Part shown: positions 15,802 through 20,269 of the stretch, in pieces
Position numbering within the stretch: position 1 is the stretch's first letter
How the letters are laid out: each line of letters begins with the position of its first letter
Origin: Elusimicrobiota bacterium
Lineage (GTDB): Bacteria; Elusimicrobiota; UBA8919
DNA: 64,000 nt
NCBI GenBank assembly: GCA_003452965.1
Contig: DMMW01000002.1
Location: forward strand, 43,975-107,974
Direction of reading: 5' to 3'
Notes under the pieces: model-generated
The model's input: only the letters and a program-made list of their open reading frames with translations
What the model was told of the DNA's origin: nothing
Database searches by the model: none
Translations under genes and position numbers: made by a program

Positions 15802-16720
15802 AAGAGTAGTTGTTACCGGTGGTGCAGGATTTTTGGGGACACACCTTGTTAATAAACTTAATAAACAAGAGTGTGCTGATGTTTTTATACCAAAAATTGA
15901 AGAGTATGATTTGGTTAAAATGGAAGATATTAAAAGAATGTATTCCGATAGTACCCCTGATATAGTAATTCATTTAGCAGCGATTGTAGGAGGAATTGGA
16001 GCAAACCGGGAGCATCCCGGGAAGTTTTTTTATGACAATTTAATGATGGGTGCTCAATTAATGGATATTGGACGCCAAATAGGCATAAAAAAGTTCGTTG
16101 CATTAGGAACAATTTGCTGTTATCCAAAGTTCACGCCGGTTCCGTTCAAGGAAGAAGACCTATGGACCGGATATCCCGAAGAAACTAATGCCCCATACGG
16201 ATTGGCTAAAAAGATGCTTTTAGTTCAATCACAGGCATATAGGCAGCAATATGGCTTTAATTCAATTTTCTTAATGCCGGTGAATCTATACGGACCCAGC
16301 GATAATTTTAATCCGAATACTTCGCATGTCATTCCGGCTTTAATAAAAAAGTGTTTTGATGCTATAAAAAATAATGATAAAGAAATAATTGTATGGGGAA
16401 CCGGCAAGGCAACCCGTGAGTTTTTGTATGTTGAAGACGCCGCTGAAGGCATAATGTTGGCGACAGAAAACTACAATAAACCTGAGCCGGTAAATCTTGG
16501 CGCCGGTTTTGAAATATCAATAAAAAATTTGGTAGAGATTATAGTTAAATTAACTGGTTTTAAAGGTAAAATAGTTTGGGATAAAACAAAGCCTGACGGT
16601 CAACCCAGAAGATGTTTGGATGTATCAAAAGCAGAAAAGGAATTTGGTTTTAAGGCGAAAACAAATTTTGAAGAGGGACTTAGAGAAACGATAGAGTGGT
16701 ATAAGAACAGCGTAAAATGA
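15776..16720 (+). CDS. fcl: GDP-L-fucose synthase-like 3,5-epimerase/4-reductase (Fcl/WcaG family SDR)
   Basis: [44 protein letters not shown] matching Fcl core. Confidence 0.7.
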
Positions 16721-17550
16721 TTAATTTTATAGAAAAAATCCTTAGTTATATTAAAACAAAAAGACAAATAAGGGAAAAAGTAACTAACCATACTGTACTA
16801 CTTGCAGACTATCCCAGATGCGGTATTGGGTGGATACGGTATATGTTAGCTACTGCACTGCATTATAATGCTACAGGTATGTTGAAAAAATTATCGAATA
16901 GTGAGATGTATGTATATGCCCCGACATTGGCTGCACTTGATGAAAAACTTAAACCATATTATTATAAAGAAGATTATTATTTATTAAAAACTCATCACAA
17001 ATACTACGGTAATTTTAGAAAAGCCATAATAATTTATAGAGATCCATATCCTACAATCAAATCATATTATACTCACATTTTAATGGAATCAGGCAGAGTT
17101 CCCGTCAGATGTACGGAAAATATTACATTGGAAGAAACATTTCTTGTTGTCGAAATGAAAAAGTATATTAGAATTTATGAAACATGGTCGAAACAGGTTA
17201 AGAAAAATCCAAAATCGTTCTTTTTAGTAAGATATAACGATTTATTGCATTATACCAAAGAGTTATTTGAGAAAATGCTGGTTTTTCTTGAAATAGATTA
17301 TAATAATTTAAAACAAGCAGGACATCTTAGTGATATTATCAATATGTATAAAAAAACGGATATAAGCGTTCCCCGAGTCAATAAACAGCCTCCCGAAGAG
17401 GCATTCAGGGAAAAAGAAGAGATATTTAAAAAGATTGAAAAAGTGATGACTGAAAAAACCCTGAAAAAAATAGCTCCTCAATTAGTCGAGAGAGTTAATG
17501 AATTATTTACAGAAATGGAATTAATGAAAGTTAAGAAAGGGGAAAAGTGA
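16717..17550 (+). CDS. PAPS-dependent sulfotransferase
   Basis: 5'-PSB-like [11 protein letters not shown] and 3'-PB-like [14 protein letters not shown]; sits directly upstream of sulfate-activation genes with 4-nt overlap. Confidence 0.55.
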
Positions 17551-19742
17551 ATACAGGTTGGATAAAATTAATTTGCACAATCGGACCAAGCTCTTCAAAT
17601 CCATACGTTTTGAGGCGTATGAAACAACTTGGAGTAAGTTTATTACGTATTAATATGTCGCACACTTCAATAGAACAATTGGATAAAGCAGTAAAATCTA
17701 TAAGGGCTGCGACAGATATTCCTATTTGCATAGATACTGAAGGCGCGCAGATTAGAACAGGTAAAGTTGTAAATAATAACTTAGAATTAAAACAAGGTGC
17801 GATTATAGAGTTAACCAAAAAAAATATTATTGGTGATTCTCAAATATTAACTCTTACACCGGACAGTATTTTTAATCAAATAAAAATAGGCACTATGCTA
17901 TTTTTAGATTTCAACAAAGTCACGATATTGATTGTTGATACTACTGAGACAGGTAGTTTTTTAGCAAAAGTTATGCAAACAGGGATAATCGGCAGTAATA
18001 AAGCTGTTAATATAGATAAAGATATTGATTTACCGAGTATTACAAAAAAGGATTTGAAAGCTATTCAGTACGCTAATAAAAATAATATAGATATTTTCGC
18101 CTTATCTTTTTCTAAAGGAAAAGAAGCAATAAAACGTTTAAGATCGCTTGCGAAAAGGAATGCGACAATTATATCCAAGGTAGAAAGTTGTAAAGGTATA
18201 AATAATATAAATGACATAATACAATATTCGGATGCTATTTTAATAGACAGGGGTGATCTTTCCAGAGAAAAACCTGTAGAGAAAATCCCTGCATTACAAA
18301 AGATGATTATTACTAAAGCACATCAAAAACCTATTCCTGTATATGTTGCAACAAATCTACTTGAATCCATGGTAACCAATCCTTTCCCTTCAAGAGCAGA
18401 AATAAATGATATAGCTAATACTTTGGCAGACGGAGCAAATGGATTAGTTCTTGCTGCAGAAACTGCAATCGGTAAATATCCTGTTCAATGTGTAAACATG
18501 GTAGGAAAAATGATAAAACAATACAATTCTGAAATTGCAGAAATTGCAAAGTTAGGAATTTCGTGGAAGGGTATAGATTTGATAAATAATACCAGGTTGC
18601 CGCATGGCTATAGCTCTGATGATTATAGGATAAGTTTAAAAACATTTAAAAAGAAAAAAAATAGACAAAGTATATCTATCAATTCTTTTGCAATTAGTGA
18701 TATAAATAATATAACGAACGGATGTTACTCGCCGTTAACAGGTTTTATGACAAAAGAAGAAACAGATTGTGTGCTTGATTATTATTCTTTACCTAATGGT
18801 ATTATATGGCCGATGCCTATAGTTTTGCAAACTTCATTAAATAAGATTAATATGGGTATAGGCGAAACTGTAGCATTAGTTGATAGGTATAGCAATAAAC
18901 GTGTAAGTTATATAACTATAAGTGATATATATAAATTAGATAAAAAAGATATTTCAAAAAGATGGTTCAAGACCGATAGTTTGAAGCATCCTGGGGTAAA
19001 AAGGATATTTAATGGCGGTGATTATTTTATAGGCGGTGAGATTAGTCAAGAGGAAGTATATTATAAAATGTCTCCGGAATATTGTTTAACTCCTTCACAA
19101 GTAAGAGCTATATTTGCAAATAGAGGTTGGGATAGAGTTGTAGGGTTTCATACCCGTAATATACCTCATCGTGCCCATGAATATATTCAGATGAAAGCAA
19201 TGGAAAAAGTAGATGCCGATGGTTTATTTATACATCCGGCAATCGGTGAAAAAAAGAGCGGAGATTTTACAATTGATGCAATAATAGAAAGTTATAAAGC
19301 GTATATTGATGCTGCCGGTTTAAGCAGTAAAACCTTGTTAAGCGGTTTTTTGGCGAATAGTTGGTATTCAGGGCCTAGAGAAGCGGTTTTTACGGCTATT
19401 TGCCGTAAAAACTACGGTTGTTCGCATTTTGTCATCGGCAGAGACCATACAGGTGTTGCAGATTTTTACAAGCCGAGTGAAATACATGATTTATTTGATA
19501 AGTTGGGAGATATTGGTATTAAACCTATTTTTTTTGATACGGTTGTTTACGATAGTAAGAAGAAAGCTTATGAAGAAATACCTTTTGAAAAAATATCCAA
19601 AAAATATAAAAAAATATCAGGAACAAAAGTAAGAGATTTACTATCCGAAAGGAAATCTCCGCCAGTATGGATGGTTAGAGAAGAAGTGAGTAAACAACTT
19701 CTGAAAAGCATATCTAAAGGAAAGAATATATTAGTTAAATGA
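17547..19742 (+). CDS. sat: fusion protein: N-terminal pyruvate-kinase-like catalytic domain (about 350 aa, no C-terminal regulatory domain) + C-terminal sulfate adenylyltransferase (ATP sulfurylase, Sat)
   Basis: PK motifs KLICTIGP, RINMSHT, ICIDTEGAQIRTG, ISKVESCKG, LIDRGDLS, NLLESM..NPFPSRAEINDIAN..AAETAIGKYP; Sat motifs CYSPLTGF, GFHTRNIPHRAHE, VIGRDHTGV; single uninterrupted 731-aa ORF. Confidence 0.75.
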   Translation: MNTGWIKLICTIGPSSSNPYVLRRMKQLGVSLLRINMSHTSIEQLDKAVKSIRAATDIPICIDTEGAQIRTGKVVNNNLELKQGAIIELTKKNIIGDSQILTLTPDSIFNQIKIGTMLFLDFNKVTILIVDTTETGSFLAKVMQTGIIGSNKAVNIDKDIDLPSITKKDLKAIQYANKNNIDIFALSFSKGKEAIKRLRSLAKRNATIISKVESCKGINNINDIIQYSDAILIDRGDLSREKPVEKIPALQKMIITKAHQKPIPVYVATNLLESMVTNPFPSRAEINDIANTLADGANGLVLAAETAIGKYPVQCVNMVGKMIKQYNSEIAEIAKLGISWKGIDLINNTRLPHGYSSDDYRISLKTFKKKKNRQSISINSFAISDINNITNGCYSPLTGFMTKEETDCVLDYYSLPNGIIWPMPIVLQTSLNKINMGIGETVALVDRYSNKRVSYITISDIYKLDKKDISKRWFKTDSLKHPGVKRIFNGGDYFIGGEISQEEVYYKMSPEYCLTPSQVRAIFANRGWDRVVGFHTRNIPHRAHEYIQMKAMEKVDADGLFIHPAIGEKKSGDFTIDAIIESYKAYIDAAGLSSKTLLSGFLANSWYSGPREAVFTAICRKNYGCSHFVIGRDHTGVADFYKPSEIHDLFDKLGDIGIKPIFFDTVVYDSKKKAYEEIPFEKISKKYKKISGTKVRDLLSERKSPPVWMVREEVSKQLLKSISKGKNILVK

Positions 19743-20269
19743 AAAATGGATTAATTGTGTGGTTAACGGGTTTATCCGGTTCCGGAAAAAGTACTATTGC
19801 AAATATAGCAGTCAAAAAACTAAAAAAAGCAAATATAAAGTCGGAAATAATAGATGGTGATGCCGTAAGAAGTCTAACTACAAAACACTTGAAGTTTTCC
19901 AAATCTGATATATCAGAGAATAATAGAATAATTTCGGATGTTTGTGAAGAAAAAAGAAAATATTTGGATGTGGTTATTGTAACGGTTATAGCACCGTTTA
20001 AAGAAATAAGAAAAGAAATCAGGGATAGATTCGGTAAGTTATACAAAGAAGTGTATGTAAAAGCTTCATTAGATACTGTAATTAAAAGAGATCCGAAAAA
20101 CTTATATGAAAAAGCTAGGCAGGGTCTGATAAAAAATATGATAGGTTTTTCTAAAAGTGTTCCATATGAAGCACCTGATAATCCGGATCTTATATTAGAT
20201 ACCGAGAGAAAAGAAGCGGATGAATTAGCATTAGATTTAAAAAAATTTGTAACGGACAGTATTGATTAG
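19739..20269 (+). CDS. cysC: adenylyl-sulfate (APS) kinase
   Basis: P-loop GLSGSGKST, IDGDAVR, LKFSKSDISENNRIIS, RDPKNLYEKA. Confidence 0.85.
   Translation: MKNGLIVWLTGLSGSGKSTIANIAVKKLKKANIKSEIIDGDAVRSLTTKHLKFSKSDISENNRIISDVCEEKRKYLDVVIVTVIAPFKEIRKEIRDRFGKLYKEVYVKASLDTVIKRDPKNLYEKARQGLIKNMIGFSKSVPYEAPDNPDLILDTERKEADELALDLKKFVTDSID

Follow-up and report, generated by a model that had tools for sequence, protein, structure and literature searches.

Why should a locus for a surface glycan carry its own sulfate-activating enzymes, and why should one of them be joined to a pyruvate-kinase-like domain? The question is raised by a 64,000-nucleotide stretch of contig DMMW01000002.1 of an Elusimicrobiota bacterium, the whole of which is called the window here. 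A module at 16717-20269 of the window was found to encode a sulfotransferase (ST), a fusion of a pyruvate kinase (PK)-like half with a Sat-type ATP sulfurylase (PK::Sat), and the adenosine 5'-phosphosulfate (APS) kinase CysC. In our reading, to which a probability of roughly 60% is given, this cassette would serve a Wzx-dependent pathway for a surface glycan as its dedicated sulfation unit, with the PK half recycling ADP. An earlier note on this DNA had named the same three genes between these coordinates, and the open reading frames (ORFs) lie exactly there, with their domains confirmed. It had passed over the fusion as a detail, although nothing else in the cassette is so unusual. The module contains the following features, where PAPS stands for 3'-phosphoadenosine 5'-phosphosulfate and PDB for the structure database.

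16717..17550, + strand: PAPS-dependent ST, SULT-like, 277 amino acids (aa) (Pfam Sulfotransfer_1, motifs, predicted fold)
17547-19742, + strand: PK::Sat fusion, 731 aa, GTG start (ORF and Pfam)
17547..18548, + strand: PK-like half of the fusion, residues 1-334, A-domain TIM barrel and B-domain cap (Pfam PK, PDB matches)
18549..18659, + strand: interdomain linker of the fusion, residues 335-371, predicted disordered, unconserved (model confidence below 50; no alignment consensus)
18660..19742, + strand: Sat-type ATP sulfurylase half of the fusion, PUA_2 and catalytic domain (Pfam, PDB matches, motifs)
19739..20269, + strand: APS kinase CysC, 176 aa (TIGR00455, Pfam APS_kinase, PDB 5cb6)

Enzymes encoded by the cassette

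The Sat half of the fusion contained PUA_2 (120 bits) and ATP-sulfurylase (231 bits) domains in Pfam. It aligned end to end with the structures 8a8d of Methanothermococcus thermolithotrophicus (E=6e-80) and 1v47 of Thermus, and the motifs HTRNIPHRAH and GRDHTG line up with both. In an alignment of the fusion family, comprising the window protein and 21 homologs which are 41-58% identical, the residues H535, R537, N538, H541, H544, G631, R632, D633 and H634 were invariant. The whole-protein profiles remained just under their cut-offs for the fusion (NF003166, 348.6 against 387; TIGR00339, 299.3 against 323). CysC scored 166.9 bits with the APS-kinase equivalog TIGR00455, over the cut-off of 138.7 (Pfam APS_kinase, E=1.5e-42), and its P-loop GLSGSGKST and IDGD (the DGD motif) align to PDB 5cb6 (E=3e-31). 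By these matches the Sat half and CysC are judged to be intact, and together they are predicted to encode both steps from sulfate to PAPS.

The PK half matched the Pfam PK barrel (PF00224, 246 bits, residues 7-316) and solved pyruvate kinases (E~1e-54 to 1e-57 over residues 7-326), being aligned to 6du6, 2e28 and PykF. The PK_C domain (PF02887) was not found in the fusion by Pfam, the PK match stopping at residue ~326-334, and TIGR01064 reached 288.2 bits, under its cut-off of 306.4; for these two reasons the half is classed, on its sequence, as PK-like and not as a pyruvate kinase. The residues R34, N36 and S38 (RxNxS), D63, R70, K152, K211, E213, D237, T269 and E305 were invariant in the family alignment. 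The phosphoryl-transfer set, in window/rabbit-muscle numbering, is R34/R72, R70/R119, K152/K206, K211/K269, E213/E271, D237/D295 and T269/T327; K152 lies in the B domain, and K211 and E213 stand in K-x-E spacing. The invariance of the catalytic residues supports the prediction of a working enzyme in the PK half. In the AlphaFold2 (AF2) model of the fusion, with a predicted local distance difference test (pLDDT) score of 83.6, the PK A+B module and the Sat module are both well folded and the B-domain strands are seen. Between the modules lies the disordered linker of ~37 residues (335-371), which is unconserved and has a pLDDT <50.

The product of the ORF at 16717 falls, as the earlier note had proposed, in the PAPS-sulfotransferase family (Pfam Sulfotransfer_1, 44.9 bits against a cut-off of 22, E=1.2e-11, profile positions 3-248 of 255), and both motifs quoted in that note are present. 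PRCGIGW at residues 33-39 forms the 5'-phosphosulfate-binding (5'-PSB) loop, in which an Arg replaces the canonical Lys of the PKxGTTW type, and RDPYPTIKS at residues 108-116 is the 3'-phosphate-binding (3'-PB) motif. Arg for Lys in this loop is also known from tyrosylprotein sulfotransferases, and more distant relatives of the ST contained PKSGTTW in the same columns. LLKTH at residues 89-93 corresponds to the catalytic-His motif of SULT enzymes, and from this identity we infer that H93 is equivalent to SULT His108. The residues P33, R34, G36, W39, K91, H93, R108 and S116 were invariant among the aligned relatives.

Since a sequence search of PDB chains with the ST gave no true match (the best was a pentatricopeptide-repeat protein, E=0.24), its predicted fold was compared. 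The AF2 model (pLDDT 80; predicted TM-score, pTM, 0.79) was searched against the PDB with Foldseek, and the best 50 matches were all PAP(S)-dependent sulfotransferases, including SOT16/18, SULT2A1 and SULT1E1. The best E value was 3e-5 and the TM-scores were modest (0.4-0.5). A word-index search for homologs returned 4 proteins only, and an exhaustive HMMER search was used instead; in 1.84 billion representatives it found 1716 at E<=1e-3 and only 13 at E<=1e-30. The ST is the sole ST-like ORF of the window. An overly strict regular expression for the 5'-PSB loop overlooked most of the ST-like ORFs of the iterative profile and was set aside.

The triad and its glycan loci

The fusion was followed in two sets, the best 120 protein matches and the best 80 genome loci of 513 confirmed relatives (one genome per species). 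The three-domain architecture (same Pfam domains, ~99% coverage) was found in 119 of the 120 proteins, and all 80 loci carried the full-length fusion, representing at least 12 phyla. The carriers in these loci belong to Elusimicrobia, Planctomycetota, Omnitrophota, Deltaproteobacteria, Chloroflexi, Nitrospinota, Bdellovibrionota, Verrucomicrobiota, Actinomycetota, Gemmatimonadota, Bacteroidota, Calditrichota and Alpha- and Gammaproteobacteria. Among the cultured carriers are Sinorhizobium saheli LMG 7837, Mesorhizobium amorphae, M. album, Salsipaludibacter albus, Halobacteriovorax sp. HLS (GCA_004006665.1) and Ensifer adhaerens CTYH.Ch1, and in PLSDB the fusion was found on chromids of Ensifer adhaerens and Sinorhizobium chiapasense. 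The source annotations of the fusion differ, giving either "pyruvate kinase" or "sulfate adenylyltransferase". A 716-aa protein on a 6007-bp ENA contig (P0014), in which a PK half 99% identical to that of the window fusion is followed by OmpA instead of Sat, was considered as a second architecture and rejected, an assembly chimera or a rearranged allele being the likelier origin. In the literature searched, outside which most subscription-journal papers lie, a PK-Sat fusion was nowhere described; PK appeared there only in coupled assays. The PK::Sat architecture is conserved and phylogenetically broad, and apparently undescribed.

An APS kinase gene was present within 4 genes of the fusion in 38 of the 80 loci, usually directly downstream and overlapping. 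In a census of the first non-CysC gene on each side of the fusion, scanned with Pfam, Sulfotransfer_1/3 topped both sides (~19 of 71 upstream and 11 of 70 downstream first neighbours) and every other family reached at most 6. With a local iterative profile, ST-like ORFs turned up in 48 of the 80 loci. Among the 50 loci with complete 8-kb flanks, an ST-like ORF was present in 32, a homolog of a glycan gene of the window also in 32, and a homolog of NeuB, NeuC or the CMP-transferase in 17; homologs of these last three genes lay within 8 kb of the fusion in 21 of all 80 loci. The second commonest downstream neighbour of PK::Sat-CysC was a Na_H_Exchanger-family (CPA) membrane protein (6 of 70; 8 of 141 first neighbours overall), for example at 14838-16094 in L081 of Ensifer adhaerens, as annotated by Pfam. 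Such a protein might serve the module as its own transporter for sulfate or a counter-ion.

The triad ST-PK::Sat-CysC was found in glycan loci of unrelated organisms. Locus L082 (12801-22181) has the order Wzx-ST-PK::Sat-CysC-methyltransferase-GT4-radical SAM-NeuB-NeuC-CBS-CMP transferase-?-AsnS, where GT is glycosyltransferase and SAM is S-adenosylmethionine, and this gene set is that of 37198-47357 in the window. In Halobacteriovorax (L085) the triad stands amid GT1, GT2, Kdo8P-synthase-like, NeuB and CMP-transferase genes, in Omnitrophota (L087) beside PseB/PseC-like and CMP-transferase genes, and in Anaerolineales (L088) the order is PK::Sat-CysC-ST. Two close relatives of the ST carry a glycan-assembly domain on the same polypeptide: a 742-aa protein (P0126, profile E=4e-93) joins a Wzx-type flippase domain to the ST, and a 778-aa protein (P0127, profile E=8e-84) joins a GT4 glycosyltransferase to it. 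The flippase-sulfotransferase fusion is itself unusual.

Some further genes recur around the triad. In the window (37198-47357), L082, L085 and L087 it was repeatedly found near NeuB, UDP-GlcNAc 2-epimerase, the CMP-transferase CTP_transf_3 and an Asn-synthase-like amidotransferase. Radical-SAM enzymes also recur near it in unrelated organisms, of the SPASM type in the window (33850-35061) and of B12-binding types in L082 (14890-16458) and L087 (2844-4232).

The closest relative of the window fusion, from Elusimicrobia (L001), is 82% identical. The identity between the two loci was 77% for CysC, 70% for the Wzz-like protein and only 57% for the ST. The ST is the fastest-evolving part of the cassette, consistent with a changing acceptor specificity.

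The genes flanking the module in the window are the following.

14767..15801, + strand: Wzz-like protein (topology transmembrane, coiled coil, transmembrane; no Pfam match)
15776..16720, likely real start ATG at 15782, + strand: Fcl-like GDP-6-deoxyhexose epimerase/reductase of the short-chain dehydrogenase/reductase (SDR) type (Epimerase 184 bits; NF047922, GDP-L-fucose synthase, 306 bits, under the cut-off of 500)
20286..21062, + strand: SAM methyltransferase, DUF268/Methyltransf_11, starting 16 nucleotides past cysC
21087..22571, + strand: Wzx-type flippase, Polysacc_synt_3 (225 bits)

Overlaps of 4 nucleotides were read from the sequence at three consecutive junctions: ATGA at 16717-16720 between the Fcl-like gene and the ST, GTGA at 17547-17550 between the ST and PK::Sat, with AAAGGGG just 5' of it, and ATGA at 19739-19742 between PK::Sat and CysC. 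The earlier note had described a 4-gene coupled unit with overlaps at every junction. The overlaps are there, but 16717-20269 holds three genes; the fourth is the upstream Fcl-like SDR, which is coupled to the ST in the window but is not a conserved member of the cassette. In L001 the triad comes directly after an ortholog (70% identical) of the Wzz-like gene, no Fcl-like gene standing between, and in L002 the triad is present in yet other flanks. The Fcl-like gene was therefore rejected as a fixed fourth member, and the conserved unit is the triad.

Overlaps of this length were found at 10 of the 53 +-strand junctions of the window, and the next gene begins 16 nucleotides away. A promoter and terminator scan of 11000-27500 gave counts equal to those of shuffled sequence (106 promoters against 96±11; 7 terminators against 6.5), and it is silent either way on a separate transcription unit. 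The module is therefore a cassette inside a long co-directional operon-like array, and not demonstrably a separate transcription unit.

The G+C content of the window is ~30% and nearly all long ORFs are on the + strand. By the Pfam domains of its genes the whole 64 kb is one continuous one-strand glycan locus, which bears out the embedding in a glycosyltransferase cluster described earlier. Its genes, among them those for nonulosonic acids, heptose and GDP-sugars, encode DegT, four GT2/GT4 enzymes, GDP-mannose dehydratase, the Fcl-like reductase, the Wzz-like protein, Wzx, an HldE-like enzyme, a GmhA-like SIS protein, Glf, NeuB/NeuC/CMP-transferase, a formyltransferase, acetyltransferases and many methyltransferases.

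Other genes of the locus deserve mention. A 983-aa polytopic membrane protein without a Pfam match is encoded at 11779-14730, between a GT4 gene and the Wzz-like gene, and could be a polymerase or a glycan-modifying transferase. In E. coli HldE the kinase domain comes first; the HldE-like protein at 23492-25060 has the reversed order, with the cytidylyl/adenylyl-transferase domain N-terminal (45-140) and the PfkB kinase C-terminal (209-508). A split transketolase is encoded by an N-terminal thiamine-pyrophosphate-binding ORF (26121-26975) followed by an ORF with the pyrimidine-binding and C-terminal parts (27205-28122), which in a glycan locus suggests the synthesis of an unusual keto or branched sugar. 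Two paralogous DUF362 proteins of ~480 aa are encoded at 44060-45493 and 57638-59089.

From the Rosetta-stone fusions P0126 and P0127 and the glycan-locus context, a glycan is the most likely acceptor of the ST, and we consider this assignment probable. The glycan is probably sulfated as the repeat unit, while this is lipid-linked and still on the cytoplasmic side. As to the sugar that would be sulfated, the coupled Fcl-like gene (6-deoxyhexose) and the nonulosonic-acid genes that recur give no more than hints. The sulfation module proposed in the earlier note is thus supported computationally by the ST family, the intact Sat and CysC and the glycan surroundings, and the sulfation of the glycan is a prediction.

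Proposed role and rival explanations

The synthesis of PAPS uses two ATP and releases ADP and pyrophosphate (PPi). In the proposed mechanism, the Sat half of the 731-aa protein would convert ATP and sulfate to APS, which CysC would phosphorylate to PAPS. The PK half, tethered by the flexible linker, would use phosphoenolpyruvate (PEP) to convert the ADP released by CysC into ATP, so that the dead-end E-ADP-APS trap of APS kinase would be relieved and ATP supplied to Sat. The sum of these steps would be ATP + PEP + sulfate -> PAPS + PPi + pyruvate. From PAPS, the cytoplasmic SULT-like ST would then transfer sulfate to a hydroxyl group of the lipid-linked repeat, or of a sugar of it, ahead of its flipping by the adjacent Wzx. 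An in vitro cascade gave practically no PAPS without ATP regeneration by PK and PEP, because of the E-ADP-APS dead-end complex of APS kinase (PMC9885120). The ATP-recycling role of the PK half, taken by itself, is proposed tentatively, at somewhat short of even odds.

Several observations weigh against a dedicated sulfation unit with ADP recycling. The PK half lacks the C (allosteric) domain; at the monovalent-cation site DTKGPEIR is changed to DTEGAQIR, with E65 and Q68 family-invariant; and near the proton-relay site MLSGE(S/T)A is changed to VLAAETA, with AAE for SGE again family-invariant. Because of these three features, the kinetics or even the substrate of the half could differ from those of PK. 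About half of the fusion loci are without CysC within 8 kb, where CysC may lie elsewhere in the genome. CysQ (PAP phosphatase), a pyrophosphatase and a sulfate transporter were not identified in the module. The ST subfamily is small and, with only 13 representative clusters at E<=1e-30, offers little comparative power. Sulfotransfer_1 members elsewhere are mostly small-molecule enzymes, and the acceptor is not readable from sequence.

The missing C domain and the TIGR01064 score under the equivalog cut-off, along with the family-specific K-to-E and E-to-Q changes at the K+ site and the SG-to-AA change beside the conserved Glu, would also fit a PK half that is not a working kinase and serves as a regulatory or scaffolding domain (PEP/ADP sensing, oligomerisation). 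Fungal ATP sulfurylase (1i2d/1m8p) offers a precedent, in that its APS-kinase-like domain is catalytically dead and binds PAPS allosterically. Dead domains, however, normally lose their binding and catalytic residues, whereas here the residues that contact the PEP phosphate, Mg2+ and the nucleotide phosphates, like the catalytic Lys, do not vary across many phyla at 41-58% identity, and the B-domain cap is kept; a dead PK half is considered unlikely, though of some weight. Equally, the half might work and transfer the PEP phosphate to another acceptor, either the 3'-OH of APS (a PEP-dependent APS kinase) or another nucleotide, which would make it a new PAPS synthase in the loci without CysC. 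Those loci, and the invariant changes at the cation and nucleotide side of the active site, speak for such a transfer. But where CysC is present it usually overlaps the stop codon of the fusion, which argues for a need of it, the remaining genomes may just have their CysC at another place, and no PK is known to have a 3'-OH acceptor; another phosphate acceptor is highly improbable.

The product of the pathway can be questioned in the same manner. PAPS might be made while the ST leaves the polysaccharide of the locus alone and has a lipid, small metabolite, protein tyrosine or nucleotide sugar as its substrate, since the nearest solved folds are small-molecule SULT and SOT enzymes with TM-scores of only 0.4-0.5 and the acceptor-binding region of the ST (residues 73-95) was modelled at low confidence. 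Against this stand the translational coupling of the ST within a 64-kb one-strand glycan locus, the fusion of its relatives to a Wzx flippase and a GT4 enzyme, and the fact that in unrelated phyla the triad has Wzx, GT or nonulosonic-acid genes as its neighbours; were a nucleotide sugar the acceptor, the glycan would end up sulfated all the same. We regard a non-polysaccharide acceptor as quite unlikely. The chance placement of an ordinary assimilatory activation (PAPS to CysH to sulfite) in a glycan locus, for which one could point out that in the PDB the Sat half matches an assimilatory enzyme best, that of M. thermolithotrophicus, seems a shade more remote than a new phosphate acceptor. No PAPS reductase or sulfite reductase was found in domain scans of the window genes or among the 25 commonest neighbour families of the fusion, and the sulfotransferase family tops both neighbour lists.

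The dedicated sulfation unit with ADP recycling would have a wider consequence, which we put forward with more reserve than the recycling itself. PK::Sat may be a natural PEP-driven PAPS synthase, acting by ADP recycling or possibly on another acceptor, that evolved for sulfation and not for assimilation; with its spread, alongside sulfotransferases, through glycan loci of at least 12 phyla, often with nonulosonic-acid genes, sulfated surface glycans would be far more widespread in bacteria than currently supposed.

Comparison with known systems

NodP/NodQ with NodH, and the NodPQ-dependent LpsS and sulfated surface polysaccharides of Sinorhizobium and Mesorhizobium, are like the cassette in placing a dedicated second sulfate activation next to a PAPS sulfotransferase that decorates a glycoconjugate. 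NodP/NodQ belongs to the CysD/CysN(GTPase)-CysC type, whose formation of APS is powered by the hydrolysis of GTP, whereas the cassette has the homo-oligomeric Sat type fused to PK, with no GTPase and no CysD/CysN domains in the module. The likeness to NodPQ drawn in the earlier note therefore holds for the function, a dedicated PAPS supply, but not for the enzyme family. RaxPQ with RaxST and the mycobacterial CysDNC with Stf also combine a dedicated PAPS supply with a sulfotransferase and use a GTPase-type CysD/CysN sulfurylase; they are functionally like the cassette, but their type of sulfurylase is not in the module.

The synechan (xss) cluster for a sulfated exopolysaccharide of cyanobacteria resembles the window in having Wzx/Wzy-type machinery and sulfotransferases in one cluster, and is described with a general cellular PAPS supply (PMC13125312), whereas the cassette carries its own Sat, CysC and PK domain. 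Its host, a low-GC Elusimicrobia-like bacterium, is outside the groups said to make sulfated polysaccharides, unlike the cyanobacteria. In the current view bacterial sulfated polysaccharides belong to cyanobacteria and a few marine bacteria; a portable triad found from Elusimicrobia to rhizobia would widen that view and would offer a simple genomic marker for sulfating loci. Because the fusion is annotated inconsistently, metabolic reconstructions from metagenome-assembled genomes can go wrong on both glycolysis and sulfur metabolism.

In the engineered in vitro PAPS cascades the same activities are combined (ATP sulfurylase, APS kinase, and PK with PEP), and PK is reported to be needed for the accumulation of PAPS (PMC9885120). 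Those cascades are mixtures of unrelated purified enzymes, whereas the cassette is a natural single polypeptide with an overlapping gene, conserved across phyla. The supply of PAPS is a stated bottleneck in the microbial and enzymatic production of sulfated glycosaminoglycans (PMC13125312, PMC9885120), and a compact natural enzyme pair coupling PEP to PAPS synthesis would, if true, be directly useful there.

Canonical pyruvate kinases (PykF/PykA, PKM) share with the PK half the A barrel, the B cap and the catalytic Arg/Lys/Glu/Asp/Thr set. They possess in addition a C-terminal allosteric and tetramerisation domain, DTKGPEIR and SGE, whereas the PK half has no such domain, DTEGAQIR and AAE. The bifunctional PAPS synthases (animal PAPSS1/2; Aquifex aeolicus 2gks, to which the Sat half aligns at E=5e-55) likewise combine a Sat-type sulfurylase with an APS kinase. 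There Sat is fused to the APS kinase itself, whereas in the cassette CysC is a separate, overlapping gene and Sat is joined to a PK without a C domain. The cassette is a variant of dedicated sulfate activation for sulfation, and its variant feature is the PK::Sat fusion.

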